A stretch of 64,000 nt of DNA, taken from a bacterium. Lineage in GTDB: Bacteria; Bacteroidota; Ignavibacteria; Ignavibacteriales; Melioribacteraceae. The notes under the pieces were generated by a model. It did no database searches, was not told the DNA's origin, and saw only the letters and a program-made list of their open reading frames with translations. The stretch spans positions 6,668 through 70,667 of the forward strand of contig JAZDHY010000092.1 in NCBI GenBank assembly GCA_043805435.1. Reading direction: 5' to 3'. Position numbers and translations under genes: made by a program. This document shows positions 20,668-36,847 of the stretch, in pieces (position 1 is the stretch's first letter; each line of letters begins with the position of its first letter).

Positions 20668-21180
20668 ATGAAAAAAAGTATTTTATTATTTGTAGTATTT
20701 GCATTATCTTTATCCATTTTTGGATGTAAAGACGATGATAACTCTACCGAAAATGTTACTCCTAAAGATCCAATTGTTGGTACTTGGGTTTCGGAAGGAA
20801 ATAATGTAGCTCCTTTATTGGTCTATTTTTTTAAAGCTAAAAAAATTACTGCTACTTTTAACGAAAATTTCAGCTATACCGTTGTTCAAATTGATTCAAG
20901 TAATGGATCTACTACATTTACAGGTACTTACACATTAACAAAAGGAACAACAGGTACAATTTACCAGATAGTTGTAAACCAACAAACTCCAAGTGTATTA
21001 ATTGCCGAAGGTATTTATCAAATTGATACTGCCGCAGAACCTGATGGAATGAAATACGAAGTTATTCAAACAACTCCGGCTATTGGAGCAACACCTCCAA
21101 CGGTTACTGCAGGTTTTGGCAGCTCAAGCGGCGGCGCATTAGGAACATCCAATATTCAAAAATATGTTAGAGTTCAATAA
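20668..21180 (+). CDS. Lipoprotein, unknown function
   Basis: It has a lipobox-like 'LSIFGC' and an SD (AGAGGAAAA) ahead of the ATG. A strong terminator follows. Confidence 0.6.
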   Translation: MKKSILLFVVFALSLSIFGCKDDDNSTENVTPKDPIVGTWVSEGNNVAPLLVYFFKAKKITATFNENFSYTVVQIDSSNGSTTFTGTYTLTKGTTGTIYQIVVNQQTPSVLIAEGIYQIDTAAEPDGMKYEVIQTTPAIGATPPTVTAGFGSSSGGALGTSNIQKYVRVQ

Positions 21181-21248: not shown

Positions 21249-22808
21249 ATGAAAAAAATAAATACTTTTTTGTTTGCAATAATTTTTGTTTCCAACATTG
21301 CTCTTTTTTCGCAAGAGCAAACTTGGAGTTACGACGAGAACAAAGTTCCCTCAAAACCGGTTACTGAATTTCAATTTATGGCATACTTTACTACACAAGG
21401 AGTATCAAATAATATTTATGCCGAAAATGATTTATTAAAAGGACAAACAGTAGGCAGATTATTTGGCACAAACTCTACAAATACAGGACAAAGTGCTTTT
21501 TATTTTGAACAGCGTTTAATTCCTTTTATTATTTACCAGCCTAAACTTTTAGACGGAAAAGCTATCCTTAGAATGTCTTTTGAAATTGATTGGACTTGGG
21601 GTGATGCTTCGTATGGTGCAGGCGGTAATTTTGGGTCTGCTTTTTCTGCCGATCAAGTAAACATCCAAACCCAAAATATTGAATTGGAGTTAATTCCTTT
21701 TAAAAATTTTGCAATTAATCTAGGTCTTCAAAGACTTTACGATACACCTTACAATCCTTACAGAACTTTTGCAAGTACAATGCTTAACACAGGTTACAGA
21801 TTAGCCTATTGGGGAAGTGATGCTGTTGGTATTTCCGCCCGTTACGACATGGATTATGATAGAATCAAAGCCGGTTATTATCAATTGTACGAAAATAACA
21901 CAAATCAAAACGATGATGTTGCATTGTGGGAATTAATGTACGAGCATGATATTACTCCCGCATGGCGACAAGGTGTAAGCTTAAATTATGTTTACGACCG
22001 GGGCAGTGGTGAAGGCGGTGTTTCCGTATTAGGACAAGGCCTAAATAGTTCGCTTAACGCTTATAATGGCGTTTACCGGTTCCCTCTTGGTTCAAGTACT
22101 TATAAAGCCGATATTTTTTGGCTCGGTACATTTGGCAGTTACAATCCTGAATTTACTTTAGGACGCTGGTCAATAAATGGATTTTTTAATGCTAATTTTG
22201 GAAAAGTTGATACGGCAATTGCCGGCGGTTACCAAAAAGCATGCGATATTTTTGGCTATGCTGCTAATTTCCGTGCAGGATACAAATATGGCCAAACCGT
22301 TGACGATAATGTGATGATTGATTTATTATATGCCAGCGGAGATAGCGACGGATTTAAAAATGGTTCGTACGATGGCGTTTTAACAGGAAATATGTGGGGA
22401 TCGCCCGGTGCAATTTACGTAACCAGCGGAGCATATTTATTATATCCACATGGCAACGTTGTAAATCGCTATTACGCCGCTATAAGCGACTTATCCAATC
22501 TGGGGTTAGGCCAATTTGGAGGAACAGTTAACTTAACTAAATCTTTCATTCCAAATAAACTAAAAGCTAAAATTGGTGCGGCTTATGCTGTAAGTATGGT
22601 TAAACCTTTTGGCGGTAAAAATGATATTGGTACAGAGTTAAACGCAATGGTAAGCTATCAGCCGGCTGTTTATATGAATATTGAATTACATGGAGCATAT
22701 TTAATGCTCGGTGATTTTTATAAAAGTCCGGCCGTTAATGCTAATTCATCAACAAAACCATCTAACCCATACACGTTGTTTTGTGTATTTAAATGGTTAT
22801 TATTCTAA
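21249..22808 (+). CDS. Putative outer-membrane beta-barrel protein
   Basis: It has a signal peptide, alternating aromatic/Gly-rich beta-strand patterning and a C-terminal aromatic residue (…KWLLF). Confidence 0.55.
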   Translation: MKKINTFLFAIIFVSNIALFSQEQTWSYDENKVPSKPVTEFQFMAYFTTQGVSNNIYAENDLLKGQTVGRLFGTNSTNTGQSAFYFEQRLIPFIIYQPKLLDGKAILRMSFEIDWTWGDASYGAGGNFGSAFSADQVNIQTQNIELELIPFKNFAINLGLQRLYDTPYNPYRTFASTMLNTGYRLAYWGSDAVGISARYDMDYDRIKAGYYQLYENNTNQNDDVALWELMYEHDITPAWRQGVSLNYVYDRGSGEGGVSVLGQGLNSSLNAYNGVYRFPLGSSTYKADIFWLGTFGSYNPEFTLGRWSINGFFNANFGKVDTAIAGGYQKACDIFGYAANFRAGYKYGQTVDDNVMIDLLYASGDSDGFKNGSYDGVLTGNMWGSPGAIYVTSGAYLLYPHGNVVNRYYAAISDLSNLGLGQFGGTVNLTKSFIPNKLKAKIGAAYAVSMVKPFGGKNDIGTELNAMVSYQPAVYMNIELHGAYLMLGDFYKSPAVNANSSTKPSNPYTLFCVFKWLLF

Positions 22809-22842: not shown

Positions 22843-23787
22843 ATGTACAAATATAAATATTTAATTTTACTTTTAGCAATTATAGTATTAAATGGTTGTT
22901 CACCTTATAGGAATGTTATAAAAATGGAATTTGATGATGTTGAGTATCCATATACTGTAAAAAAAGCGGAGCTGACAAATGGTATTAAATTAGCATATAT
23001 TGACGAAGGAAAAGGTGATAATACCATTATTTTTATTCATGGATTAGGCAGTTATCTTAAAGCATGGAATAAAAACTTACCTTCCCTTTCCGAAAAATAC
23101 CGCTGTATTGCAATTGATTTACCCGGTTATGGTAAATCGAGCAAAGAAATTCACCCGGGCTCTATGGATTTTTATGCCGCTGTTTTAGCTGATTTTATTA
23201 AAAAATTAGACTTAAAGAATGTTACTCTTGCAGGACACTCGATGGGTGGTCAAATTTCAATGGTGTTTTCGTTAAAATACCCTCAATTGGTTACTAATTT
23301 AGTACTTGTTGACCCTGCGGGATTTGAAGAATTTACAGAAGGACAAAAGCAGTGGTTCCGTGATGTTATGACTGTTCCAATGGTAAAAAACACTCCGGTA
23401 CAAAGCATTCGTGCTAATTTAATTATGAATTTTTACGATATGCCCGAAGATGCCGAATTTATGGTAACAGACAGAATTGCTTTTAGAGATGCTAAAGACT
23501 TTGATAAATATTGTTATGCTGTTACCCGCAGCGTAAACGGAATGGTTGATCAGCCGGTTATTAATCTGCTGGATAGAATTACAAAACCGACATTAATAAT
23601 TTTTGGAGAAAATGATAACCTTATTCCAAATCCTTATTTAACCGGCGGTACAACAGAATCTATTGCAAAAATTGGTCATGAAAAAATAACCGGAAGCAAG
23701 TTAATAATGATCCCAAACTGTGGTCATTTTGCTCAATTCGAAAAATATCAAGAAGTTAATAATGCTATTACTGATTTTTTAAAATAA
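22843..23787 (+). CDS. Alpha/beta-hydrolase (lipoprotein)
   Basis: It has a lipobox 'LNGC', 'HGLGS', the nucleophile elbow 'GHSMGG' and a C-terminal 'CGHF' His motif. Confidence 0.85.
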   Translation: MYKYKYLILLLAIIVLNGCSPYRNVIKMEFDDVEYPYTVKKAELTNGIKLAYIDEGKGDNTIIFIHGLGSYLKAWNKNLPSLSEKYRCIAIDLPGYGKSSKEIHPGSMDFYAAVLADFIKKLDLKNVTLAGHSMGGQISMVFSLKYPQLVTNLVLVDPAGFEEFTEGQKQWFRDVMTVPMVKNTPVQSIRANLIMNFYDMPEDAEFMVTDRIAFRDAKDFDKYCYAVTRSVNGMVDQPVINLLDRITKPTLIIFGENDNLIPNPYLTGGTTESIAKIGHEKITGSKLIMIPNCGHFAQFEKYQEVNNAITDFLK

Positions 23788-23806: not shown

Positions 23807-23841
23807 AAGGGAGTGTATTTATTAATATGCTCCCTTTTTTA
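23807..23841 (+). terminator. Probable terminator of the hydrolase gene; left edge of the island
   Basis: AAGGGAG...(16-nt loop)...CTCCCTT is followed by TTTT. Confidence 0.5.
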
Positions 23842-24000
23842 TTTTAAATATTAAACACTTATAAACATAAGCAAGAGTAACAATTTTTATTTTTGGCAGT
23901 AATGCCTAATTGCAGCGCGCGTGAGATTTAAAGATTGTGTTAAAATTAAAAAACAGCAATAATTTGATAAAACATGTGGTGAGGTTGTCCGGTGTTTGTT

Positions 24001-24093
24001 GTTACAGACATGGAATTTCTTTAAAATTCTACAGTACTTTAAAGGTAGAACAATCAAATATTAAGAACTGTGGAACAGTTCAATGGCTGTAAC
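24001..24093. other. Long imperfect hairpin of 93 nt in an ORF-free leader (candidate structured RNA)
   Basis: Nested pairings are GTTACAG/CTGTAAC, CATGGAA/TTCAATG (1 mismatch) and TTCTACAGT/ACTGTGGAA (1 G-U). Confidence 0.35.
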
Positions 24094-24388
24094 AAAACAA
24101 AAAAGCACAAATACGTACTCTGGAAGAGTACAATGTAAATTACATCCTCCAAAATAGTTATAAAATGGTAATAAAAGCCCGTAAACACCCTAAATTATTA
24201 TAAAACTAAATTTTATCTGCAAAATAATTGCCATAATTTATTGTTGTTATTTATTATTTAGTTATTTTTGTAATAAAGTATAATTGCGGTTTTAGGCAAA
24301 TATTTTTGTGCTATTAAATCAAAATGCTTTCCTAAACCCCACAATAAAAATATAAAAAGTTTTACAAACCTATTAACATTGGTATGGT

Positions 24389-24657
24389 ATGGAAATTATA
24401 AACTACAATAACAATTTAAGCACAAATTAAAAAAATAATTATTTGTTTTATGTATTTAATACCTAAAATTATCGTTTTCCCGACGTCGGGAAGACGATAA
24501 GATAATAATAAAATATTTATAATTAGAGTGATACATGGAAATTATAAACTACAATAACAATTTAAGCACAAGTAAAAGATTAATTATTTGTTTTATGTAT
24601 TTAATCTAAAATTTAATGCTGAAATTATCATTTTCCCGACGTCGGGAAGAAGATAGG
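24389..24657. repeat. Two tandem copies (starts 146 bp apart) of an element of about 115-123 bp, each ending in the perfect 16-bp palindrome TTCCCGACGTCGGGAA
   Basis: Copy 1 spans 24389-24501 and copy 2 spans 24535-24657. The first 37 nt are identical (ATGGAAATTATAAACTACAATAACAATTTAAGCACAA). The palindromes lie at 24477-24492 and 24633-24648. In copy 1 the stem extends to 14 bp (24471-24498). Confidence 0.85.
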
Positions 24658-25005
24658 AATGCAAAAAAAACAACAAAAAAGATGTATTATAATATAAAGC
24701 GGGGCAATAGTAATTATTAAATTCGTAAAAATTTCACTATTATTCTACTACACTAAATGAATAATCTGCTATAAATTTAAATCAAAGTATCCATATTCTA
24801 TGTTTTTCGAAAATATTTATTGAGTATAATAAATATTTAGTTTATTTTAATAGATGTTTTCCTGTTGATATGGAAAAAACAAAAAATTAAGGATAAGAGG
24901 AATAAAAATTGAGTTTACTAATATAAAAATTGGTTAAATTAAATTTACAGACCCCAAAAATCATAATAACATACAACTTTAATAATTAGCTAATTTAGAT
25001 ATTTT

Positions 25006-28000
25006 ATGTCATCAAAGTTTTTTACTAACAGAAGCGAAAGAAATTTATTTGATAAGTTTAAGGGTATACTTGAAAACATGAAAGACTTATATGCCTTTCA
25101 TGCTGTTGTTGGTTATTTCCGTTCATCCGGTTATTTTGCATTACAACCTTACCTAAAAGATATTAAAGATATAAAAATTTTGGTTGGAATTAATGTCGAT
25201 CAAATGTTTGCGGAAGCACAAAGGAAAGGTTTAATATACTTTGGTGACGAAAATAAAACAAAAAATGAGTTCTTAAATTGGTTTATTAATGATATAAAAG
25301 AAGCCAAATATACACTGGAAGTTGAAAATGGTGTTTTGCAATTTGTACAGGATTTAATGGACGGGCGAATTCAAGTACGTGCACATAATTCACAAAATAT
25401 ACATGCAAAGTTTTATTTGTTTTTACCGGAAAACCATTCCGAACATACTGACGGCTGGGTAATAATGGGATCGTCAAATTTGACAGAAGCCGGACTTGGA
25501 ATTAAAAAAACACCAAATTATGAATTAAATATTGCATTAAAAGATTTTGATGATGTTTCTTTTACTGTTGATGAGTTTAAAAAACTTTGGGACCACTCAA
25601 CTCCAATACTGCCTGCTGATATACAGCAATTTAAAGAAAAAACGCATATTGGACAGGTTTTTACCCCTTATGAACTTTATTTAAAGTTTTTAATAGAATA
25701 TTTTGGTAAAAACATAGATTACGACCCGGATACAGTAGGTGATTTACCTAAAACTTATAAAAAATTAAGTTATCAAATTGATGCGGTAAATCAAGGGTTT
25801 CAAATGTTGATGGAACACAATGGTTTTTTCCTTGCTGATGTTGTAGGGCTTGGAAAAACTGTTGTTGCTGCAATGATTGCAAAAAGGTTTATAATTGCTA
25901 ATGGTTCGTTAAATACTAAAATATTAGTTGTTTTTCCACCCGCTGTTGAAAAAAACTGGAAAACTACATTTAGACTTTTTGGAATTGACAGACATACAAA
26001 ATTTATTACAAACGGAAGTTTGGATAAAATAATTGATAATAGGGATTTAAATTATTGGGCTAAAGAAGACTATGATTTGATTTTAGTTGATGAAGCGCAC
26101 CGTTATAGAAACCATACTTCTGAAATGTTTGGTTTTTTACAGCGTATTTGTAAGTCACCAAGGGTTAATAATGGTTTAATTGCAGGGGATAAAAAGAAGG
26201 TTATTTTAATTTCGGCTACACCTTTAAATAATAGACCCCAAGATTTGTATTACCAATTGTTACTTTTTCAAGATTCAAGAAAAAGTACATTAAATATTAC
26301 AAATTTGCAAAACTTTTTCGGTCCTTTAATACGTGAATATAAAGAAATTATTAGAAACAGCGAACCGAATTTACAAAGCATACGAGATATTTATATTAAG
26401 ATTAGAGAAGAATTAATATCACAAATTACAGTACGAAGAACACGACGAGATTTAAATAATTATCCCAAATATATTGAAGACTTGAAAGCGCAAGGAATAG
26501 TTTTTCCTGAAATTGCTGCGCCTAAACCGAAGTATTATCAATTAGATGCCAAATTAAGCAAATTGTTTTATCATACAATATTTTATTTAACCGATTCCGA
26601 TAAAATTAATTATTACCGTTATCAGGCAATTGCTTATTTAAAACCTGAATTTAGGGAACAGTATTATGAACAGGCCGAATTAGTATCTAATTCATTAGCC
26701 GGTATTATGAAAACCTTAATGGTAAAAAGACTTGAAAGCAGTTTTAATGCTTTTAAAATATCATTGCAAAATTTAGCTGATTCAACTCAAATAATGATTG
26801 ATATGTTTGAACGGGGAAAAGTTTTAATTGCACCCAATTTACATATTAAAGGTTTGTTGGATAAAGGCGTAACCATTGAAGATATTGAAGATAAGATCCT
26901 TGAATTAAGTATTGAGAACCCTAAAAATAATATTTTTACAACACAGGATTTTGAGGATGATTTTTTACCCGGTTTAAAAAAAGATCATTTGCTTTTAACC
27001 GATTTAATAAAAGATTGGGGAGTTGTTAAACATGACCCAAAACTTGAAACTTTTATTAATAGTATTGAAAATGAATTTTTAAATAAAACTATTAACCCTA
27101 CCGGCAAATTGGTAATATTTACAGAAAGTAAAGATACCGCATTATATTTGCAAGAAAATGTTGAAAAAATATTAAAAACTAAGGTTTTAAATATCTCTTC
27201 TTCAAACAGAAACAAACTTTTTGATGTTATTTTGGAAAATTTTGACGCTAATTTTAACGGTGAAGGCAAGGACGATTATAAAATATTAATTACTACTGAT
27301 GTACTTGCCGAAGGTGTAAACCTGCATAGAGCAAATGTAATAATTAATTACGATACTCCTTGGAACGCTACACGTTTAATGCAGAGGATTGGACGTGTTA
27401 ATAGAATTGGCAGTGTTGCAGGAGTAATTTATAGTTATAATTTTTATCCTTCTGCTCAAGGTGATGAAGAAATTAACTTATATAATAATGCGCTTATTAA
27501 ATTACAAGGGTTCCATACTGCTTTTGGCGAAGATGCACAAATATTTACGCATGAAGAATTAATTGAGCAGTTTGAATTGTTTAAAGAGGGATTAAAAGAC
27601 GAAGAAGATAAACGCCTTATTTATCTTCAATTTATACGCGAATTTAAGGATAACAACCCAAAAGAATTTAAACGTATTAAACAATTTCCGCTTAAGGCAC
27701 GTACTATGCGGAAAACAAGTATTGCAAATAAAAAAGATTTGCAAAAATCGAGTATTGTGTTTTTAAAATCTGCCTATAAAACAGAGTTTTATAAAGTTGA
27801 TGAAATTAATTCCGTTACACCACTTACTTTTGTGGAAGCGGCCGAAAGTTTTGAAGCAAAATTAAATGAACAAGGTTTTAAATTAGAAGAAATACATTAT
27901 AAACAAATAAATGCAGCCTTAAATAAATTTGAAGAAGACTTTTTAATTTCCGGTACTGAAACAGTTACTTCGTTGGATAAGTCAGATGTCATTTCCCCAC

Positions 28001-28305
28001 AGTCTAATAAGTTTTTAAGATCCCATAAAGATAAAACAAAAAATGATGGAGTCAAAACTGCATGTGGTAAGTTAATTGTTTTAGTTGATAAAGGAACAAT
28101 TACCGCTTTACCTAATGAACTAAAAAAAATAAAACAAAAATTGGATAAAAAAGAATTTACTGATGGACAAGTTGATAACTTAATTTTGGGGCTTGAACAA
28201 AAGTATATTTCTAAAATAGAAATTGAAAATGAGGAAAACCAACAAGTTGGTTTTTTTGCCGATATTACACCCGTAATAATTTTATCAGAAACTTATATTG
28301 AATGA
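25006..28305 (+). CDS. PLD-family nuclease domain fused to an SNF2-family (SF2) helicase/translocase
   Basis: The N-terminal PLD motif is 'HAKFYLF...GSSNLT' (HxK at 25402-25410). The SNF2 motifs are I 'GLGKT', II 'LVDEAHRYRN' (26089-26100), III 'SATPLNN' and V/VI 'TDVLAEGVNL...QRIGRVNRIG'. Length is 1099 aa. Confidence 0.88.
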   Translation: MSSKFFTNRSERNLFDKFKGILENMKDLYAFHAVVGYFRSSGYFALQPYLKDIKDIKILVGINVDQMFAEAQRKGLIYFGDENKTKNEFLNWFINDIKEAKYTLEVENGVLQFVQDLMDGRIQVRAHNSQNIHAKFYLFLPENHSEHTDGWVIMGSSNLTEAGLGIKKTPNYELNIALKDFDDVSFTVDEFKKLWDHSTPILPADIQQFKEKTHIGQVFTPYELYLKFLIEYFGKNIDYDPDTVGDLPKTYKKLSYQIDAVNQGFQMLMEHNGFFLADVVGLGKTVVAAMIAKRFIIANGSLNTKILVVFPPAVEKNWKTTFRLFGIDRHTKFITNGSLDKIIDNRDLNYWAKEDYDLILVDEAHRYRNHTSEMFGFLQRICKSPRVNNGLIAGDKKKVILISATPLNNRPQDLYYQLLLFQDSRKSTLNITNLQNFFGPLIREYKEIIRNSEPNLQSIRDIYIKIREELISQITVRRTRRDLNNYPKYIEDLKAQGIVFPEIAAPKPKYYQLDAKLSKLFYHTIFYLTDSDKINYYRYQAIAYLKPEFREQYYEQAELVSNSLAGIMKTLMVKRLESSFNAFKISLQNLADSTQIMIDMFERGKVLIAPNLHIKGLLDKGVTIEDIEDKILELSIENPKNNIFTTQDFEDDFLPGLKKDHLLLTDLIKDWGVVKHDPKLETFINSIENEFLNKTINPTGKLVIFTESKDTALYLQENVEKILKTKVLNISSSNRNKLFDVILENFDANFNGEGKDDYKILITTDVLAEGVNLHRANVIINYDTPWNATRLMQRIGRVNRIGSVAGVIYSYNFYPSAQGDEEINLYNNALIKLQGFHTAFGEDAQIFTHEELIEQFELFKEGLKDEEDKRLIYLQFIREFKDNNPKEFKRIKQFPLKARTMRKTSIANKKDLQKSSIVFLKSAYKTEFYKVDEINSVTPLTFVEAAESFEAKLNEQGFKLEEIHYKQINAALNKFEEDFLISGTETVTSLDKSDVISPQSNKFLRSHKDKTKNDGVKTACGKLIVLVDKGTITALPNELKKIKQKLDKKEFTDGQVDNLILGLEQKYISKIEIENEENQQVGFFADITPVIILSETYIE

Positions 28306-28940
28306 TGAACAAACAAGAATTACAAAAAGAAATATTTGAAAAAGCTTACCAGCACGAAAATTGGTTAGAAGTATTAAGAGAATTTTTTGGTGTACAAAAT
28401 ATTTTTCAATTGCCTAAACCAATAAAAATAAATGAAAATGAATTCACAACAGATGCTTTTGAATTAGGGAGTTTAATTACTAAAGATGAAAGATTGGTTG
28501 GAGTTTATAAAGTTGTTTTAAATAGTAATGTTGTTATTGAAAAAAATCGCGTTGGTTTACGTAGTCTTTTAAGAAACATATATAAATATGATGTTGATGC
28601 TGCTTTAATTGTATTTTTACAAGATAATAAATGGCGTTTTAGTTTTGTGAGCGAAATTAGGTTGGAGGACGGAAAAAAAGAAACAGAACCTAAAAGATAT
28701 ACCTATTTATTTGGAGATGGTGAAATTTGCCGGACAGCTGCGGATAGATTTTTTAAGCTAAAAGGAAACCCGGTTTATTTAATTGATTTATTTGATGCTT
28801 TTTCAGTTGAAAAGCTTAATAAAGAATTTTTTGATAAATATAAAGCTTCTTTTGAAAAATTTTGTAGTTATTTAGTAAGTCAACAAAATTACGTTGAAAT
28901 ATTTACAAAAAAAAAGCACACTCAAAAATTGGAAGGATAA
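28302..28940 (+). pseudogene. N-terminal segment of a PglX/Eco57I-like DNA methyltransferase, separated from its body by a frameshift
   Basis: Its start overlaps the helicase stop (ATGA). The segment '...KWRFSFVSEIR....EPKRYTYLFGDGE.CRTAADRF' matches the N-terminal module seen in PglX/type IIG-like MTases. It ends 25 nt after an A9 run. Confidence 0.7.
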
Positions 28941-31900
28941 AGAAGCAAAACCAATCCGTGATTTTGTAAAAAAATTGATGGGGAGATTAGTCTTTTTGCA
29001 GTTTTTACAAAAAAAAGAATGGATGGGTGTACCTGCAAATACAAAGGGTTGGACAGGTGGTGATAAAGGATTTCTTAAATCATTTTTTGTGGGATTTGAG
29101 GATAAAATACATTTTAATAGTCTAGGACTAAAAATTCTTTTCTTCGATACATTAAATAAAAAAAGAGAAAATGATATTGCGCCTAGCATTTTGGACAAAA
29201 ATATTAAAATTCCGTATTTAAATGGGGGATTATTTGATAAGGATCCTAATTATGAGTATGAAGTTGATTTTACTCCTACATTATTCCTAGATCTATTAGA
29301 CTTTTTTGAACAATATAATTTTACTATTGATGAAAATGACCCTTACGATTCCGAAGTTGGAATTGACCCTGAAATGTTGGGACATATTTTTGAAAACTTA
29401 CTTGAAGAAAACCGCGAAAAAGGTGCATTTTATACACCTAAAGAAATAGTTAAGTATATGTGTCAGGAAAGTTTGATAGAGTATTTATTTACTAATTTAC
29501 CTGATGAGAAACGGGAAGATATAATAAATTTAGTTCGATTGCATAAAATAAGTGATAGTTTTTATGTATTTGATAACGCAAAAAAAATAAATAAATTACT
29601 TAAGGATGTTAAAATTTGTGACCCTGCAATTGGATCAGGCGCATTTCCTATGGGCATGTTAAAGGAAATTTTTGGTTGCAGGAAAATTTTATATGGCTTT
29701 TTGAATGATAACCATTCATTTGATCCTGCCCTTGTGAAAAAAGAGATTATTCAAAAAAATATTTATGGTGTTGATATTGAAATAGGCGCTGTTGAAATTG
29801 CGCGATTAAGATTTTGGCTTTCGTTGGTTGTTGATGAAATTGAACCACAGCCTTTACCAAACCTTGATTATAAAATTATGCAGGGTAACAGTTTATTAGA
29901 ACGTTTTGGCGATATTGATTTAAAAGACCTAATTAATGTTGAAGATGATATTATTATTAAAGATGTTGAACATGATGTTTTGAGCCCTGAGTTTGAACCT
30001 GAACCTATTCAATTGACAATATTTGATAAAACCACAAAGGAATATTTAAGTGAATTGATTCAAAAATATTATGACCCTGATGATTGGAAAAATAATACAG
30101 GGGAAACTATTGATAAATATTCTGTTAAAAAAGAAATTAATGATATTATTAACGGTAAATTAAAAGCACAATTGTTTTTTGAAAAAGAAAAAATACAAAA
30201 AGAAATTAATCTTTTTAATGCAAGATATTGTATTAAAAATGATGATGATGTTAAAAGATTAAAACAAAACAACAAAGAAGTAGTTAGATATTTAAAATTA
30301 AAGGATAATCTACTAAAATTAAAAGATGATGAAATTGTATTAAAAGAGATGCAAAAAAAGGAAGAAAGACCTTATTTTTTATGGCATCTATGGTTTAAAG
30401 ATGTTTTTGATAAAGGTGGTTTTGATATTATTATTGGCAATCCGCCATATATAAAAGAATATACAGACAAAAGTGCGTTTGATGGTCTTCACAATTCACC
30501 TTATTACGAAGGTAAAATGGATATTTGGTATTTATTTGCCTGTTTTGGGATTGATATATTAAAAAACAAGGGAGTGGAGTGTTTTATTGCTCAAAATAAT
30601 TGGACAACCAGTTATGGTGCTTCAAAGTTAAGAAATAAAATATTGAATGAAACAGAAATTCTGTTATTTACAGATTTTGGTAATTATAAGGTTTTTGAAA
30701 GTGCCGGTATTCAAACAATGATAAATTTGTTAAAAAAGAAAAATCCAAGAAACTCTTATCCTCTAATTTACGGACGGTTAAATAATGATAGTGCTGATCA
30801 ACGAGTTTTAATTTCGTTTCTTAATACTCAAAATCTTGAATCAAATAGTGAATTCAGGAGATATATATTTAATTTCCAACCTCCAATTTATAAAAATGAA
30901 TTTATTACTTTTAATGAATCTAAGGTTCAACAAATCATTGATGAAATTAAAAAAAATGATTTAACTTTTTTATTTGCTGAAGAAATTGCTCAAGGTATTG
31001 TTGCACCTCAAGATAAGTTAAATAAACAAAATCAAAAAATTTTAGGTGATTTATACAAAATTGGGGATGGTATTTTCCAATTAACTAAACTTGAAAAAGA
31101 AAATTTAAATTTAACAAATGAAGAAAATTCTATTATAAAACCTTTTTATTCCTCTAATCAATTGAAAAGGTATTTTGCCGATAAAATAACCGATGAATAC
31201 TTAATATATCTAAAATCTGGGGCAAATCAGATTATTGATTTATACCCCAATATAAAAAAACATCTTATTCAATTTACATCAATTATTACTTCCGATAATA
31301 AACCATTCGGGCTCCATAGAGCACGCGAAGAGAAATTTTTCAAAGGTGAAAAAATATTTTCATTAAGGAAATGTGAAAAGCCAACGTTCACATATTGTAA
31401 TTTCGATTGTTATGTCTCGCAGTCATATTTTATTATAAAGACTAATCGTTTGAGCTTAAAGTATTTAACATTATTGCTTAACTCGCGCCTTATTACCTTT
31501 TGGCTTCTTAATAAAGGTAAGCGACAAGGTAATAATTTTCAGATTGATAAAGAACCTTTATTAAACATTCCAGTAAGAAAAATTGATAACACTAACCTAT
31601 TTGAAGTAATGTGTGATTATTTAATATTTCTATATGACAAGACAAAACCAAAGGTGAACGAATATTTAGACAATACTAGTATTGCTCGTTTTTTTGAAAA
31701 AGTTGCTGACATGATGGTATATGAATTATATTTTGAAGAACACATGCGCGATTTAGAAATTGATGTGCTTGAATATTTTAATACTAAAAAAATACTTTTG
31801 GATATAAATAATTTTAAAAATGAACCCGTCTATCAAGCCGGTATTATTAATAATGTATTTACAATTTTACAGGAACAAGCTAATCCGGTGCGCAACAGAG

Positions 31901-31962
31901 TTATTTTAGCTAACATTAGAAGCCAAGATATAATTGCGCAAATTAATGGCAGTACAATTTAA
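28894..31962 (+). CDS. N6-adenine DNA methyltransferase (gamma-class, Eco57I/PglX-like) with TaqI_C-like target-recognition domain
   Basis: Motif I is 'CDPAIGSGAFP' and the sequence 'PYFLWHLWFKDVFDKGGFDIIIGNPPY' contains NPPY at 30439-30450. The C-terminal '...LKYLTLLLNSRLITFWL...NFQIDKEPLLNIPV' matches the TaqI_C specificity-domain pattern. No nuclease domain was seen. Confidence 0.85.
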   Translation: MKYLQKKSTLKNWKDKEAKPIRDFVKKLMGRLVFLQFLQKKEWMGVPANTKGWTGGDKGFLKSFFVGFEDKIHFNSLGLKILFFDTLNKKRENDIAPSILDKNIKIPYLNGGLFDKDPNYEYEVDFTPTLFLDLLDFFEQYNFTIDENDPYDSEVGIDPEMLGHIFENLLEENREKGAFYTPKEIVKYMCQESLIEYLFTNLPDEKREDIINLVRLHKISDSFYVFDNAKKINKLLKDVKICDPAIGSGAFPMGMLKEIFGCRKILYGFLNDNHSFDPALVKKEIIQKNIYGVDIEIGAVEIARLRFWLSLVVDEIEPQPLPNLDYKIMQGNSLLERFGDIDLKDLINVEDDIIIKDVEHDVLSPEFEPEPIQLTIFDKTTKEYLSELIQKYYDPDDWKNNTGETIDKYSVKKEINDIINGKLKAQLFFEKEKIQKEINLFNARYCIKNDDDVKRLKQNNKEVVRYLKLKDNLLKLKDDEIVLKEMQKKEERPYFLWHLWFKDVFDKGGFDIIIGNPPYIKEYTDKSAFDGLHNSPYYEGKMDIWYLFACFGIDILKNKGVECFIAQNNWTTSYGASKLRNKILNETEILLFTDFGNYKVFESAGIQTMINLLKKKNPRNSYPLIYGRLNNDSADQRVLISFLNTQNLESNSEFRRYIFNFQPPIYKNEFITFNESKVQQIIDEIKKNDLTFLFAEEIAQGIVAPQDKLNKQNQKILGDLYKIGDGIFQLTKLEKENLNLTNEENSIIKPFYSSNQLKRYFADKITDEYLIYLKSGANQIIDLYPNIKKHLIQFTSIITSDNKPFGLHRAREEKFFKGEKIFSLRKCEKPTFTYCNFDCYVSQSYFIIKTNRLSLKYLTLLLNSRLITFWLLNKGKRQGNNFQIDKEPLLNIPVRKIDNTNLFEVMCDYLIFLYDKTKPKVNEYLDNTSIARFFEKVADMMVYELYFEEHMRDLEIDVLEYFNTKKILLDINNFKNEPVYQAGIINNVFTILQEQANPVRNRVILANIRSQDIIAQINGSTI
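28907..28915 (+). other. A9 homopolymer at the frameshift joining ORFs 28302-28940 and 28894-31962
   Basis: Deleting one A gives a continuous reading ...NYVEIFTKKSTLKNWKDKEAKPIRDF... The downstream ORF has only a TTG 'start' at 28894. Confidence 0.85.
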
Positions 31963-31982
31963 TTCAACAAGTGGAGGTTTTG

Positions 31983-33926
31983 ATGGCAGCAAATCGGTAT
32001 TGCCTTAAAAAATTAGGTATTCAAAATTTTAAGTTTTTTAAAAAACTTAAAGAAATTGAGTTAGATGGTAAAAATCTTTTATTATATGGTGAAAACGGGT
32101 CAGGTAAATCTTCAATTTATTGGGCATTATATACCTTTTTTGAGTGTTCACATAAAGCAAAAGATGAAGATATAATTAAATATTTTGACCCTGATGATGG
32201 AAATCATTTAACAAATATTCATCTTAAAGCGGATGTAACAAATACTTTTGAATCTTATATAAATCTTGAGATGGTAAAAGGAGATACTAATTTAAATCTG
32301 AAGCTATCAAAATCAGATTTGATTATTAAAAATAATAATATAATGAAGGAAAGCATTTACGCAACAGATTTTATTAATTATAGACTTTTATTTAGACTAA
32401 ATGATTTCTATCACTCAGAAGATATTGATTTATTTCCTTTATTTAGAAAAGAATTCCTTCCATATCAACAACTTGTTGTAAAGCCTTCAAATTATTCTGG
32501 TGATATGTCACTTTCAAAGGTTTATGAAAATATACTTATTGGGCCTAAATATCAATCGATAAATGCGAACAAGATTTATCCTAAACAGCACGAGCCTGAA
32601 TATTTGGAATATTTGACCTTGCAAAGTGTTTTTGAAAAATCTTTATTGGAAATAGTTGATAATATTAATACAAAAGGTGTTCCGATTTTGCGTAATGATT
32701 TTGGATATGATTTCAAATATAATTTAGATTTTCATGTTAGTGAATTTAGTATTATAAATAACCAATTTATTCCGCCCAAATATTACATTGACTTAAATGT
32801 TTCTGATTATGAAAGTATAGGTGGTCAAATACAAAAACCACAATCATTTTTAAACGAAGCCAAATTGGCCGCGCTTGCATTGTCTATGCGTTTTGCAATT
32901 TTGGAGCAACGTTTAATGGAAGGTGATATACTAAAACTTTTAGTATTAGACGATCTTCTGATAAGTCTTGATATGAGCAATAGACAAAAAGTATTAAAAT
33001 TAATTTTTGAAAAATATCAAAAAAATTATCAATGTATAATCATGACACATGATAAGTTATTTTTTGATTTAGCTAAACGAAAAATCGAAGAATCAAAATA
33101 CACTAATTGGTTATATAAGGAAATGTATTTTGATTATGAGAAAAAGGAACCAATTATTTTAGAAACTGAAAAAAATTATACTTTAGCACAATATTACTTC
33201 TCTCACTTCGACTATCCAGCTTGTGCGAATAATCTTAGAAAATTTGCTGAAGATATCTTTGTAAATATTTTTCCCATGAATATCAGATATACTGAAAAAG
33301 GTGAAGAAATTACAAAATTGAATAATTATATTGAAAGAGCAATAAAATTTTATAATAAAAATAATTTAAATTCTGATTTATTGCTAAATCTAAAAGATAA
33401 ATTGTTTTTATTATTAAACCCTCTTTCGCATTTTAGCGAGGATATTAATATTTATTCAAGTGAATTATTAGACACTCTTAAAATTTTACCGGCATTGTTA
33501 ACTGAAATAGAAGGATACAATATTAAAGAATTTATCCAATCAAATGATATAATTGAAATTAAATTTAAAGTTAATTCTACGGTTACAAATATTTATGAAA
33601 TAAAACCTAGAGAAAAAATATATATCTTTACTCAAGGGACTACTTCTTTCTTGTCACCAAACAGTTTTGATTCTATGCGATGTTATGAATACGACTCATC
33701 AAAAAATACAACAGTTATGCATAATTTCGAAGTACATAAGAATAAAAATTTATTTAAGATGTATAAGGAGATTTATAAATATAATTATGATGAAGCCTCT
33801 CAACCTGGTGCTACTCCAATCGATGAAAATAGTATAGTGGTGGAATTAAATAATATATTTAGGCAAAGACATGGTAAAAAAGATTCGTTTTACCAGCTAA
33901 ATAACAATATAAATACTACAAATTAA
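31983..33926 (+). CDS. ABC/SMC-like (RecF/AAA_15-type) ATPase with unassigned C-terminal domain of about 270 aa
   Basis: I moved the start to ATG 31983, 5 nt after GGAGG (31973-31977). The motifs are 'IQNFKFF...LLLYGENGSGKSS' (Walker A), 'LLVLDDLLISLD' (Walker B/D-loop) and 'IIMTHD' (H-loop). The C-terminal part contains 'NNLRKFAEDIF...LLNPLSHFSED'. Confidence 0.75.
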   Translation: MAANRYCLKKLGIQNFKFFKKLKEIELDGKNLLLYGENGSGKSSIYWALYTFFECSHKAKDEDIIKYFDPDDGNHLTNIHLKADVTNTFESYINLEMVKGDTNLNLKLSKSDLIIKNNNIMKESIYATDFINYRLLFRLNDFYHSEDIDLFPLFRKEFLPYQQLVVKPSNYSGDMSLSKVYENILIGPKYQSINANKIYPKQHEPEYLEYLTLQSVFEKSLLEIVDNINTKGVPILRNDFGYDFKYNLDFHVSEFSIINNQFIPPKYYIDLNVSDYESIGGQIQKPQSFLNEAKLAALALSMRFAILEQRLMEGDILKLLVLDDLLISLDMSNRQKVLKLIFEKYQKNYQCIIMTHDKLFFDLAKRKIEESKYTNWLYKEMYFDYEKKEPIILETEKNYTLAQYYFSHFDYPACANNLRKFAEDIFVNIFPMNIRYTEKGEEITKLNNYIERAIKFYNKNNLNSDLLLNLKDKLFLLLNPLSHFSEDINIYSSELLDTLKILPALLTEIEGYNIKEFIQSNDIIEIKFKVNSTVTNIYEIKPREKIYIFTQGTTSFLSPNSFDSMRCYEYDSSKNTTVMHNFEVHKNKNLFKMYKEIYKYNYDEASQPGATPIDENSIVVELNNIFRQRHGKKDSFYQLNNNINTTN

Positions 33927-33953
33927 TTTCATTTTTTCAATTTCTAAATATCC

Positions 33954-33986
33954 AAAAAACCACGCCTTATTGACGTGGTTTTTTTG
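33954..33986. terminator. Bidirectional terminator; right edge of the island
   Basis: The sequence is AAAAAA-CCACG-CCTTATTGA-CGTGG-TTTTTTT. Confidence 0.8.
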
Positions 33987-34006: not shown

Positions 34007-36847
34007 CTAACCCTTTCCTTCCGCACATTTATCAACCAAATAAATAATTGATTTATAATGAATACCGGAAAAAACGGAAAGGCCAATTTCGCAGGTACGG
34101 CTGTTGGAATAACCCTCATGGCAGTCTGGCGTTAAAGCCGGTTTAAGTTCTTTTAATGCCGATTCGTTTAATTCCGGGAAACTAAAACCACGGTCGCCGG
34201 CAAATCCACAGCAGCCAACTTCGGCAGGGGCAATAACTTCATCAACACAAAGCGAAGTTAAAGCCTTAAATTTATCGTCCAATCCCATTTTTTTAGAGCT
34301 GCACGTTGTATGTATTGCAACCGTTTTATGCTGTTTTGTAAAATTAAGTTTATCCTGCATAAAGTCGTAAATAAATTCAACCGGTTCGTAAAGTTTAAAG
34401 TTGGCATTATTTTTAATTGCAATGTATTCTTTTGTTCTGTATAAACAAGGACTTGTATCAAACAAAACCGGGTATTTGCCATTTTCAGAAGCAGCATTTA
34501 ATTGGTTTATTAATTCCTCTGCTTTATAGTCGCCTTGCTGTTTAAAACCTTTGCTGGCAAAAGCCATTCCGCAGCACAAATTTGGCAGGTAGTTTGGATA
34601 AATTATACTGTATCCGGCTTTTTTAAGTAACCGTGTCATTACTGTTGTCTGCGATTCCGTATCACCGCTGTTTTTGGAAACACCCATACTGCGGCTTATA
34701 CAGCTTGGGAAATAAACAACCTTAAGTTCGTTTTTATCGTCTTTTGCCGGATAAACTATATTATCGGCACCCTTGGGCATATATTTATTCCATAAAGGAA
34801 TTTTTTTGCCGGATCCTTTAAACATCATATTACTAATGTTTTCCATTAAGGAAGTACCAATTACAGTATGAGCTAAGTTAACAAAATTCAAACCGTTTTT
34901 AGCACCGGAAGTAACAAATTTCATTCTGTTAGCTAAAACCTTAGCCACACTATTACCTGTACCGGAAGTTAAACTTAACCGTAATTGTTTAATTAACTTG
35001 CCCGTATCAATATCAACAGGGCATGAAGTTGCGCATAAACCATCTGTAGCGCAAGTTTGGTTACCAAAATAATCAAACGAAGTAATAAATGTAGTTAATC
35101 TTTGCGGATCTGCTCCGCTTTCTTTTAATCTTTTAATTTCACGCCACCCTACAATACGCTGCCTTGGTGATAAAGTCAAATTTTTAGACGGGCAGTTAAC
35201 TTCGCAAAAGCCGCATTCAATACATTTATCAATAATAGGATCGGCAATTGGCATTGGCTTTAAGTTTTTTAGGAAAATGTTTTTATCTTTGTTTAATATT
35301 ACACCGGGATTAAAAATATTAGCCGGGTCAAAAATAGTTTTAACTTCTTCCATTAATTTATAAATTTCAGTCCCCCATTCGTATTCAACAAAAGGAGCCA
35401 TATTTCTACCTGTTCCGTGTTCTGCTTTTAACGAACCGTCATATTTTTCAACAACAAGTTTGGTAATATCTTCCATAAAATATTTATAACGCAATACTTC
35501 GCTTTCGGTGCCAAAATCCTGCGAAAATACAAAATGTACATTCCCTGCAATTGCATGTCCCCAAATTATTGTTTCGTTATAATTATGTTTGGCAAAAAGA
35601 GACTGCAGATCCAAAACAGCATCGGCAAGTCTATCCATAGGTAAATTAACATCTTCAATAATAACCGTTGTGCCAATTTTGCGTGCCGCACAAACAGTAG
35701 GAAATAAACCCTTGCGGATATCCCAAAGTTTTTTGTATTCTTTTTTATCGGTAGTAAATTGTACAGGTTGTTCTTTTGGTAAATCTTCAATAGCATCGGT
35801 AATTAATTTTATTCTTTCCTGTAAAGTTTCTTTATCCAATGCAGATGTTTCAATTAATAAAGCTGCGGCTTTGTTATCTAACGTTTTTATAAATTCAGGC
35901 ATACCCGGTTTATCTTCAACGGCTTTTAAAGCGGCTCTATCCATAATTTCGGCAGCATCAACAGGCAAATTATTAAAAATAGGAATTGCCATACATGCTG
36001 TTTTTATATCCTTAAATAATATTAAAGCAGTACCTTTGTTAGGTAGTTCGGGAACAGTTTTTAATGTCAATTCGCTAATAAATCCAAGTGTACCTTCGGA
36101 ACCGATCATTAAATGAGCAATAATATTGTAAGGGTCGTCAAAATCAACTAACGAATTTACCCCATAACCGCAGGTGTTTTTCATTTCGTATTTTTTGCGT
36201 ATGCGGTCGGCAACGGGTTTATTTTCTTTTATTTTATTAGATAAAGCGGTAATTGAATTTACCAAATCTTTACGTTTTTTATAAAAGTCATTTTTGGAAT
36301 TTTGGCTGTTTGTATCTAAAACAGAACCATCGGCAAAAATAATTTTCATTCCAAGCAGAGTATTGTAAATATTGTTTGCCGTTCCGCTTGTCATACCGCT
36401 TGCGTTATTAGCGGCAATACCGCCAAGTTTTGCGGAATTTATTGAAGCCGGATCGGGGCCCAGTTTTTTATTGTATTTAGCTAAATACAAATTGGCAAAA
36501 CTGCCAACTACGCCCGGCTGGAGTTTAATTTTATCACCATTTTCCAAAATTTCGTATTTATTCCATTCACTGCCCAAAACAAGCAAAACGGAATCTGAAA
36601 TTGCCTGGCCCGATAATGACGTTCCGGCAGCTCTAAAAGTAATTGGTAATTTAAGTTTGTTACACAACTCAATTACTTTTTGTGCTTCAGTTTCATTTTC
36701 TACCTTAACAACAAGGTTTGGTATTAAACGGTAAAATCCTGCGTCGGTTCCAAAAGCCAGTTTACGTAATTCGTCATAAATCAATCTTTCTTTAGGTATG
36801 AATTTAATCAATTCATTATATAGTGATAAATAATCTCCTTTCAACAT
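34007..36847 (-). CDS. FAD-linked oxidase fused to a (Fe-S)/CCG-domain module (D-lactate/glycolate-oxidase-like)
   Basis: 946 aa. It has an FAD_binding_4-type N-terminus and two ferredoxin-like Cys clusters 'CIECGFCEVNCP' and 'CATDGLCATSCP'. The C-terminal cysteine-rich repeats 'CCG' occur twice. Confidence 0.88.
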   Translation of the reverse strand: MLKGDYLSLYNELIKFIPKERLIYDELRKLAFGTDAGFYRLIPNLVVKVENETEAQKVIELCNKLKLPITFRAAGTSLSGQAISDSVLLVLGSEWNKYEILENGDKIKLQPGVVGSFANLYLAKYNKKLGPDPASINSAKLGGIAANNASGMTSGTANNIYNTLLGMKIIFADGSVLDTNSQNSKNDFYKKRKDLVNSITALSNKIKENKPVADRIRKKYEMKNTCGYGVNSLVDFDDPYNIIAHLMIGSEGTLGFISELTLKTVPELPNKGTALILFKDIKTACMAIPIFNNLPVDAAEIMDRAALKAVEDKPGMPEFIKTLDNKAAALLIETSALDKETLQERIKLITDAIEDLPKEQPVQFTTDKKEYKKLWDIRKGLFPTVCAARKIGTTVIIEDVNLPMDRLADAVLDLQSLFAKHNYNETIIWGHAIAGNVHFVFSQDFGTESEVLRYKYFMEDITKLVVEKYDGSLKAEHGTGRNMAPFVEYEWGTEIYKLMEEVKTIFDPANIFNPGVILNKDKNIFLKNLKPMPIADPIIDKCIECGFCEVNCPSKNLTLSPRQRIVGWREIKRLKESGADPQRLTTFITSFDYFGNQTCATDGLCATSCPVDIDTGKLIKQLRLSLTSGTGNSVAKVLANRMKFVTSGAKNGLNFVNLAHTVIGTSLMENISNMMFKGSGKKIPLWNKYMPKGADNIVYPAKDDKNELKVVYFPSCISRSMGVSKNSGDTESQTTVMTRLLKKAGYSIIYPNYLPNLCCGMAFASKGFKQQGDYKAEELINQLNAASENGKYPVLFDTSPCLYRTKEYIAIKNNANFKLYEPVEFIYDFMQDKLNFTKQHKTVAIHTTCSSKKMGLDDKFKALTSLCVDEVIAPAEVGCCGFAGDRGFSFPELNESALKELKPALTPDCHEGYSNSRTCEIGLSVFSGIHYKSIIYLVDKCAEGKG

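Follow-up and report, generated by a model that had tools for sequence, protein, structure and literature searches.

What kind of system is encoded by three closely packed genes that form an island in a Melioribacteraceae genome? We examined this question in a stretch of 64,000 nucleotides (hereafter the window; positions 6,668 to 70,667 of contig JAZDHY010000092.1, assembly GCA_043805435.1). Between window positions 25006 and 33926, three co-oriented genes encode a fusion of an HKD-type phospholipase D (PLD) nuclease to a SNF2 motor, hereafter the helicase, followed by an N6-adenine methylase that occupies two reading frames, and by an ATP-binding cassette (ABC) ATPase. We regard it as fairly likely that these genes form a two-subunit ATP-dependent restriction-modification (R-M) system on the plan of Types III and ISP, in which the helicase would be the Res subunit and the methylase, which resembles Type IIG enzymes, the Mod subunit, with the ATPase as a linked back-up RNase.

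The gene content of the island agrees closely with an earlier reading made from the sequence alone. The open reading frames (ORFs) and coordinates of that sequence-only reading match those described here, and the two translational features it pointed out are both visible: the helicase stop overlaps the methylase start at ATGA, and a GGAGG lies 5 nt upstream of the start codon of the ATPase, ATG 31983. All of the motifs that it listed are present (HAK...GSSN, GLGKT, DEAH, QRIGRVNRIG, DPAIGSGAF and FLWHLWF...GNPPY). The profile searches that it had called for matched Pfam PLDc_2, SNF2-rel_dom/ResIII, Helicase_C, Eco57I, N6_Mtase, TaqI_C, SMC_N and AAA_23; these domains and motifs confirm its 1099-residue PLD nuclease/SNF2 fusion. 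Its methylase of about 1230 residues kept the proposed domains and was corrected in length, to 1219 residues after repair of the frame.

The Res-like subunit is encoded on the forward strand at 25006-28305. Pfam and PADLOC hidden Markov models (HMMs) divide its 1099 residues into an N-terminal HKD/PLD nuclease domain (PLDc_2, residues 112-195), a SNF2-family double-stranded DNA translocase (SNF2-rel_dom/ResIII, 254-381; Helicase_C, 692-802) and a C-terminal region of about 270 residues. The best PADLOC match is an unnamed model, 'HKD+Snf2' (2e-44). The HKD catalytic motif, HAKFYLF ... GSSN (25402-25479, forward strand), occurs once per polypeptide. Across 37 homologues of 36-100% identity, the invariant residues include H133, K135 and G155-S-S-N158 of the nuclease, and G281..K284-T285, D362-E363..H365 and Q793-R794..R797 of the motor. 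Because the HKD, Walker A, DExH and motif VI residues are all invariant, both the nuclease and the motor look active. PLD nucleases with one HKD motif per chain, such as Nuc and BfiI, work as dimers. By analogy with these enzymes, two helicase chains would have to pair to form a nuclease site. By its Pfam content, the helicase has no DNA-recognition domain. The protein has more than 8000 database relatives. Identity is 70-75% across Bacteroidota, Ignavibacteriales, Verrucomicrobia, KSB1, Marinimicrobia and Acidobacteriota; values of 67-74% across phyla were also obtained.

The Mod-like subunit is encoded on the forward strand at 28302-31962, in a frameshifted gene whose two frames span 28302-28940 (212 residues) and 28894-31962 (1022 residues). 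Pfam matches, repair of the frame and comparison with homologues, which in their intact single-frame form have about 1170-1260 residues, assign it as an N6-adenine methyltransferase with a repaired product of 1219 residues. It comprises a novel, family-specific N-terminal domain, a helical region, motif I (DPAIGSGAF; 29620-29646, forward strand), a long insert, motif IV (NPPY; 30439-30450, forward strand), a TaqI_C-type target-recognition domain (TRD) and C-terminal helices. Since motif I precedes motif IV and the TRD follows, the enzyme belongs to the gamma class. Its Pfam matches are Eco57I (2.3e-35), N6_Mtase and TaqI_C, and it too has more than 8000 database relatives. Profile searches of the PDB returned CamA (5e-46), M.BseCI (1e-36) and PglX (8e-22); next to these, DrdV was a weak match and MmeI was absent, and the solved PglX/BrxX structures align to the methylase over the catalytic stretch only. 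Two homologues (P0275 and P0333) are automatically annotated at NCBI as 'BREX-1 system adenine-specific DNA-methyltransferase PglX'. This naming is likely to be a systematic mis-annotation, as a related locus (L047) carries an HKD-SNF2 gene upstream and no BREX genes.

The specificity region is where the methylases diverge. The TaqI_C-like TRD (31294-31575, forward strand; residues 801-894 of the 1022-residue ORF) is the most variable part of the protein, with a mean identity of 0.20 to 30 homologues vs 0.42-0.47 in the N-terminal and catalytic parts. Some homologues (P0340, P0342 and P0243) carry a Type I HsdS-type TRD (PF01420) in its place, or an extra C-terminal PF04326 domain, which suggests that modules may be swapped in the specificity region. 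Next to the well-conserved helicase, this gives the usual R-M pattern, a conserved R subunit beside a diversifying specificity subunit.

If the helicase carries the nuclease of the system, what does the N-terminal domain of the methylase do? This conserved alpha/beta domain of 204 residues (28302-28913, forward strand) averages about 47% identity within its family. The 212-residue N-terminal ORF matched no Pfam, PADLOC, NCBIfam or PHROG model, and we found no conserved D...(D/E)xK nuclease residues in the domain. Its AlphaFold 2 (AF2) model (pLDDT 86) has no fold match in the PDB, where the best hits are spurious (TM-score <=0.26). With no family match, fold match or conserved motif, we conclude, as did the sequence-only reading, that the methylase polypeptide has no recognisable nuclease, and the HKD domain on the motor is thus the sole DNA nuclease of the system. 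The identity of the N-terminal domain tracks that of the helicase (Spearman 0.56, p 5e-4, n 35, with no correction for phylogeny); in the same comparison the methylase core and the TRD gave -0.07 and -0.17. This co-variation suggests that the N-terminal domain may be the interface with the motor-nuclease, and we consider it a candidate docking surface for the helicase.

We then looked at the linkage of these genes across genomes. A genome scan from the helicase gave 42 loci; linkage was counted in those with at least 4.5 kb of downstream flank (n=32) or with enough flank for the ATPase (n=28). An intact single-frame methylase follows the helicase in 32/32 loci, and the two genes abut or overlap in 14 of them. 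An ATPase homologue follows the methylase in 18/28 loci (about 64%; one locus, L017, was counted by hand). With the methylase as the starting point (3/3), and likewise with the ATPase (3/3), look-ups returned an HKD-SNF2 gene immediately upstream in the same gene order, often with an XRE-type helix-turn-helix (HTH) gene at the head of the cassette. The conserved core is therefore the helicase-methylase pair; the ATPase is a frequent third gene, found only with that pair in the loci sampled. In metagenomes the cassette occurs very commonly. Conservation of the three genes as a unit holds in full for the pair and in part for the ATPase, which is unneeded for the core function because it is missing from 10/28 loci with an intact pair.

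Where the two core genes do not abut, in at least 14 loci (L001-L003, L007-L009, L011-L013, L022-L025 and L027), 1-2 kb of passenger genes lie between the helicase and the methylase; among their products are a DUF1016/YhcG-like PD-(D/E)xK protein of 340-390 residues, four-helix-bundle proteins of about 122 residues and a GxxExxY protein. An ORF of 460 residues occupies the same position in L035, with a truncated copy in L034. Embedded passenger genes of this kind are familiar from Type I R-M operons. A Polaribacter metagenome-assembled genome (MAG) carries tandem systems (L017, 10001-23291), with helicase, methylase and ATPase followed by a second helicase, 44% identical to that of the window, and a second methylase. 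In a Pyrinomonadaceae MAG (L033, 10072-15256), the first half of the helicase (N-terminal) and the middle part of the methylase are joined in a single ORF, with methylase and ATPase fragments behind it; this looks like a decayed or deleted copy.

Is the copy in the window functional? An A9 homopolymer at 28907-28915 (forward strand), in a Lys-rich variable linker of the methylase, creates a +1 frameshift. Deleting one A joins the frames into a single ORF of 1219 residues, collinear with the intact homologues, so that an A8 tract restores the frame. We think it rather unlikely that the frameshift arose in sequencing or assembly and that the system is intact and active in the organism. Homopolymers are well known as places where errors arise, the source is a MAG and all homologues are intact; set against this, two NCBI MAG records contain the identical truncated product of 1022 residues, and the other A/T9 and A/T8 runs of the window leave their ORFs intact, including all three other intragenic A/T9 runs. 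A systematic homopolymer error is unlikely for these reasons, and the frameshift is probably real. Given a true frameshift, it is possible that it represents a phase-OFF state reached by slipped-strand mispairing, for which the evidence is weak; early decay is equally likely. An in-frame A9 tract sits at the same linker in one related locus (L007), and most homologues have no A-tract there. The mod genes of Type III systems are classic targets of phase variation. By comparison with them, a system without its specificity subunit should be shut down safely, in methylation as well as in restriction. The system is OFF or in decay in this genome, since the nuclease-motor should be untargeted when the specificity subunit is lost.

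The third gene, on the forward strand at 31983-33926, encodes an ABC ATPase of 647 residues that Pfam, an AF2 model and motif comparison mark as a candidate anticodon nuclease of the PrrC/RloC (ABC-HEPN) type. The ORF could begin at 31971, and the start is most likely ATG 31983, as in the NCBI annotation of 647 residues. Residues 1-395 of the protein form a Rad50/SMC-like head, residues 398-512 a helical domain and residues 515-647 a beta-rich tail. The head matches Pfam SMC_N and AAA_23, and carries a Walker A motif (GENGSGKSS), a Walker B/D-loop (LLVLDDLLISLD) and an H-loop; in the PDB, Foldseek (1e-10) and profile (4e-10) searches place it with Rad50/SMC and Rad50, respectively. The AF2 model has a pLDDT of 87.7. 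Fold searches of PDB and BFVD with the whole protein returned only ABC heads of the Rad50, SMC and retron-PtuA type, and its C-terminal domain had no fold match in either database. Scanned on their own against Pfam and PADLOC, the C-terminal 257-348 residues yielded no useful match.

The helical domain carries the clue to function. It contains a signature, R419-x3-E423 ... N479-x2-S482-H483, embedded in the motifs LRKxxE and LLNPLSH, and in 81 homologues R419, E423, N479 and H483 are the only invariant residues outside the ATPase head. RloC and PrrC anticodon nucleases share the signature Arg-X3-Glu-X36-52-His, often with Ser before His, and mutation shows each of its three residues to be essential (PMC2610378). 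Anantharaman et al. describe genes of this ABC-HEPN type within R-M operons, frequently beside Fic/Doc or RhuM genes (PMC3710099). A Fic gene (L048) and a RhuM fragment (L051) lie just downstream of the ATPase in two related loci. The window protein thus resembles PrrC/EcoprrI and RloC in joining an ABC head to a C-terminal Arg-x3-Glu ... Ser-His signature, in being appended to what would be an ATP-dependent R-M operon, and in keeping company with Fic and RhuM in some loci. It differs from them in size (647 residues vs 396 for PrrC), in lacking the zinc-hook coiled coil of RloC (we found no CxxC zinc hook), in the wider spacing of its signature, in its extra beta-rich C-terminal domain and in a partner that is not Type I. 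Its similarity to Pfam AAA_13, the family that includes PrrC, is weak and inconsistent: over profile positions 506-711, the gathering score is exceeded by 2/10 ATPase homologues, and the others fall below it. The likeness is one of motifs, drawn from the published motif description. We consider it about evenly balanced whether the ATPase is a PrrC-like ABC-RNase guard, a candidate identity that is clearly better supported than leaving the protein unassigned. The sequence-only reading had called it SMC/ABC-like with an unassigned C-terminus; the first part was borne out, and the second is refined by the R-x3-E...S-H signature of PrrC/RloC type.

Could the ATPase instead be a working part of the restriction enzyme? 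In that case the three proteins would form one obligate complex, in which the ATPase would serve the restriction enzyme as a DNA sensor or loader of the SMC/Rad50 kind, a role proposed for BrxC or DUF499 proteins in BREX and BR systems, and would be no independent RNase. All three look-ups from the ATPase found it with this system, its gene is translationally close to that of the methylase, its head is Rad50/SMC-like, and its link to PrrC/RloC lies at the motif level only. We nevertheless judge an obligate complex to be unlikely. The ATPase is absent from those 10/28 loci with an intact helicase-methylase pair, the same position elsewhere holds stand-alone defence modules (an AAA_21 pair or a GHKL ATPase), and the invariant R, E, N and H of the helical domain look as expected of an RNase active site. 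The 'extra ATPase' that the sequence-only reading had included in the system is thus present, in about 64% of loci, and is more likely a linked back-up RNase, as a candidate by its motif, than a subunit of the restriction enzyme.

A less probable alternative concerns the methylase, which might be a self-sufficient Type IIG enzyme with a divergent N-terminal nuclease, next to an HKD-SNF2 protein that is merely a co-located nuclease-helicase in the style of Hna, Nhi or SauUSI. The N-terminal domain does occupy the usual position of a Type IIG nuclease, Type IIG models are the best PADLOC matches of the methylase (REase_MTase_IIG, 6e-67), and Milman et al. call related genes 'homologous to Cj0031', an enzyme that restricts phage. 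The methylase-TRD half is homologous to that of MmeI, Eco57I and Cj0031 and matches Pfam Eco57I, MmeI_Mtase and TaqI_C. In contrast to these enzymes, the methylase polypeptide has no recognisable nuclease, and an ATP-dependent nuclease-motor is obligately linked to it instead. In the Type IIG profiles, the aligned part begins at position 237, 528 or 587 and covers only their own methylase/TRD portion, and none of them matches the 212-residue N-terminal ORF. The N-terminal domain has no conserved acidic-x-Lys motif, its confident AF2 model is unlike any PDB nuclease, and linkage in 32/32 loci, frequent start/stop overlap and the co-variation of this domain with the helicase are hard to square with two independent genes. 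We find this explanation quite improbable. Because the Type IIG HMMs match the methylase/TRD part, a tool that accepts a single such match would probably call the locus 'RM type IIG', which would be wrong in function.

How does the pair compare with established ATP-dependent systems? Like the Type III enzyme EcoP15I (Mod plus Res), it consists of two genes, one for a methylase with target recognition that would be able to act alone and one for a superfamily 2 ATP motor with a nuclease that would be targeted through the first; the window helicase matches Pfam ResIII. Unlike Type III, the motor here is of the SNF2 family, the nuclease is an N-terminal HKD/PLD domain and not a C-terminal PD-(D/E)xK domain, the methylase is a gamma-class, Eco57I/PglX-like protein of 1200 residues with a TaqI_C TRD and not a beta-class Mod, and the gene order is res then mod. 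That the Res protein depends on Mod here would fit this architecture and a helicase devoid of a DNA-recognition domain. With the Type ISP enzymes LlaGI and LlaBIII, the system shares a nuclease, an ATP motor, a gamma-class N6-adenine methylase and a TRD in the same order, and the cleavage of Type ISP, by collision of two translocating enzymes, would suit a single-HKD nuclease. It differs in being made of two polypeptides (32/32 intact loci) and not one, in a PLD vs an Mrr-like nuclease, in a SNF2 vs a Type I-like motor and in the extra N-terminal domain of the methylase.

Other systems share parts and not their defining genes. BR and Hma are defined by a DUF499 AAA+ ATPase (HmaC), and Type-2 BR also by DUF3780 (PMC12839542). 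The effector of Type-2 BR is an N-terminal HKD domain fused to a Swi2/Snf2 helicase, together with an N6-methyltransferase. The window shares the helicase-methylase-ATPase logic of these systems (PMC12839542, PMC8565338, PMC11232893), with an HKD-fused Swi2/Snf2-type helicase and a methylase; in contrast, its only ATPase is of the ABC/Rad50 type with an RNase-like tail, and DUF499 and DUF3780 are missing. HmaA matches the window helicase (8e-30) in the C-lobe only, and no HmaC was among the PADLOC matches. We rejected an assignment of the three genes to Hma, re-read as Type-1 BR, as there is no DUF499 ATPase and the Hma methylase is a 5-methylcytosine enzyme according to the PADLOC paper. Class 1 DISARM uses the same part families, namely a PLD nuclease (DrmC), a SNF2 helicase (DrmD) and a large N6-adenine methylase (DrmMI, which matches our methylase partially in PADLOC, 2e-23); in the window, unlike DISARM, DrmA and DrmB (DUF1998) are missing and the PLD domain is fused to the SNF2 motor.

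That the locus is a reduced or degenerate class 1 DISARM, BREX or DUF499-centred BR/Hma system whose other core genes were lost is very improbable: PADLOC finds the common part families (DrmD 3e-30, DrmMI 2e-23, PglX 1e-22, HmaA 8e-30), Type-2 BR also pairs an HKD-SNF2 helicase with an N6-methyltransferase and some homologues bear the automatic 'BREX-1 PglX' label, and yet the NCBIfam models score far under their cut-offs (DISARM_DrmD 129 bits vs 610, DrmD_b 88 vs 950, BREX_1_MTaseX 84 vs 500), no DrmA, DrmB, BrxC/PglY, PglZ, DUF499 or DUF3780 gene occurs in the island, in the window flanks or in the gene tables of the six Pfam-annotated loci, and the compact form of two or three genes is kept across 32 genome loci, so it is no one-off remnant. 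With core genes absent and curated models at 15-20% of their cut-offs, membership in DISARM and BREX is excluded.

We thus conclude that the system would work like Types III and ISP and belongs to none of DISARM, BREX, BR/Hma, Type IIG, classical Type III and Type ISP. The proposal that R (nuclease plus motor) and M/S functions are split over separate polypeptides is upheld by the conserved linkage, the nuclease-free methylase and the curated models below cut-off. The same holds for the claim of parts shared with DISARM and BREX in a locus that has no defining core gene of either. The statement that the locus fits no named system needs a qualification: it falls under none of these definitions, yet Type IIG HMMs match the methylase and the pair has been noted before (PMC9881135).

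Our model for this system is as follows. The methylase would read a short asymmetric DNA target and methylate the host sites. The HKD-SNF2 protein, which carries no specificity domain of its own, would dock on the methylase, probably via the N-terminal domain of the latter. Where foreign DNA is unmethylated, the SNF2 motor would use ATP to translocate along the double strand, and cleavage would occur when two single-HKD Res subunits meet, for example as two complexes converge, comparable to collision in Type ISP and to the two-site requirement of Type III. We hypothesize that the ABC-RNase is held silent by the intact R-M complex, like PrrC with EcoprrI; if a phage disabled restriction, the RNase would cut tRNA or other RNA.

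Several observations weigh against this model. The canonical Asp of HxK(x)4D is Leu140 in the window helicase. Complex formation is deduced from linkage and from a co-variation uncorrected for phylogeny, and our literature search found no experimental study of any member. For the ATPase, the distance from R-E to H is 59 residues vs the published 36-52, and the window protein matched neither Pfam AAA_13 nor a PrrC/RloC model at E<=0.01 in the libraries scanned. A profile of its C-terminal domain, searched against 1.84 billion representatives, gave 765 clusters, and the best 150 of these all belong to the same family of about 600-660 residues, with no bridge to PrrC/RloC. The ATPase is also missing in about 36% of loci. 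For the frameshift, both MAG records may go back to one set of reads, and programmed phase variation stands on weak ground because the A-tract is unconserved in most homologues. More tentatively still, and with some doubt, we suggest that the pair could be a distinct, abundant and unnamed class of ATP-dependent R-M, a 'split Type ISP' or 'SNF2-type Type III', with an N-terminal docking module, a PrrC-like guard and, in this lineage, an A9 phase switch.

Where does the island begin and end? On the left, the intrinsic terminator of an alpha/beta-hydrolase gene (23807-23836, forward strand) was scored by the terminator scan, as a 13-bp stem followed by a T-run. On the right, a bidirectional terminator-like hairpin, AACCACG-N9-CGTGGTT with A- and T-runs on either side, is visible in the sequence at 33958-33984, between the ATPase gene and a convergent FAD-oxidase gene; the scan left it unscored because its loop is 9 nt. 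The location of the island between two terminators, as first described, was thus recovered. Its size of about 10 kb was recovered for genes and borders, with the addition that the first 1.17 kb (23842-25005) holds no ORF. The island has a GC content of 27.5% vs about 33% in either flank. As the sequence-only reading had noted, the island has no integrase. The whole 64-kb window lacks one, and it contains no tRNA gene either.

The flanks are housekeeping in nature (symporter, AMP-ligase, hydrolase, FAD oxidase, peptidase and a major facilitator superfamily transporter). Pfam identifies the upstream neighbour, 22843-23787, as a hydrolase (Abhydrolase_1, 3.5e-34) and the downstream neighbour, 34007-36847 on the reverse strand, as an oxidase (FAD-oxidase_C, 2e-55). 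Just left of the hydrolase, two ORFs at 20668-21180 (170 residues) and 21249-22808 (519 residues) had no Pfam match at E<=1e-5. A related metagenome contig (L043, 4171-4976) has the same peptidase-oxidase synteny, with an oxidase 77% identical to that of the window. Past the oxidase terminator, this contig carries a gene with a C-terminal sorting domain of the type IX secretion system in place of the island, and its hydrolase side is not syntenic. Such an arrangement is consistent with the island being an insertion, by a comparison with the empty site that is partial, and with a host of the FCB group. Close relatives are almost absent from the collections of phages and plasmids, and we therefore abandoned the possibility that phages or plasmids carry the cassette.

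The spacer upstream of the helicase (23842-25005) is AT-rich (GC 0.241, or 24%) and has no ORF of at least 60 residues. In about 19/42 related loci, a gene for an XRE-type HTH protein of 92-99 residues abuts the helicase start at this position; a tblastn search with the HTH protein found no trace of such a gene in the window. The spacer has no Rfam match above noise and no tRNA. On the forward strand at 24385-24675 it contains two tandem repeats of about 146-156 bp (repeat families D1, D2 and D4, 82-95% identity), each ending in a palindromic hairpin, TATCGTTTTCCCGACGTCGGGAAGACGATA, with a 14-bp stem and folding z-scores of -4.3 and -3.6. The hairpin motif is confined to these two sites across the 64 kb and has no Rfam match. 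The absent HTH gene and the 1.17-kb spacer with its tandem hairpin repeats hint at a rearranged 5' end.

At the other end of the cassette, the position after the methylase or ATPase gene behaves as a hotspot for defence genes in related loci. The defence-like genes found there lie in L003, L004 and L008 (an ORF of 643 residues), in L003, L007 and L010 (ORFs of 400 and 217 residues), and at L048 12812-13903, L050 10637-14565 and L051 9898-13967. They encode an ATPase of the GHKL type, an AAA_21-like ATPase next to its small partner, Fic, two proteins with GmrSD_N, and an LmuB_C protein accompanied by a RhuM fragment.

How much of this was known? A literature search for a name of the HKD-SNF2/IIG-like pair returned only table entries in Milman et al. 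2023. Their Table 3 lists a Type II R-M coding sequence homologous to Cj0031 next to one with phospholipase D (cd09178) and SNF helicase domains (PMC9881135). Another such context in the same table includes a DUF1016 gene, and both are contexts of programmed inversions (PMC9881135). The pair had thus been noticed bioinformatically and follows the logic of ATP-dependent R-M, so it is not a new category. To the sequence-only reading our analysis adds the Res/Mod-like core, a novel N-terminal domain in the methylase that is no nuclease and whose identity follows that of the motor, the candidate RNase guard and a copy that is switched off.

If our interpretation is correct, it has consequences for how these genes are read. 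Annotation pipelines attach wrong labels to its components, namely 'helicase-related protein', 'Eco57I methylase domain protein', 'BREX PglX' or a Type IIG enzyme that stands alone, and because of this mislabelling, defence censuses and the interpretation of methylomes are skewed in these phyla. The system would be a second natural R-M enzyme with an obligately linked ABC-RNase guard besides PrrC-EcoprrI, and would offer another setting in which to test the idea that restriction systems are guarded. The modular methylase, with its conserved docking domain and swappable TRD, could supply new programmable specificities. A helicase-methylase pair that ranks among the commonest in Bacteroidota and other environmental phyla would then be a working ATP-dependent restriction enzyme of an uncharacterised design, in which a SNF2 motor and a nuclease with a single HKD motif are combined with a specificity subunit like that of Type IIG enzymes.

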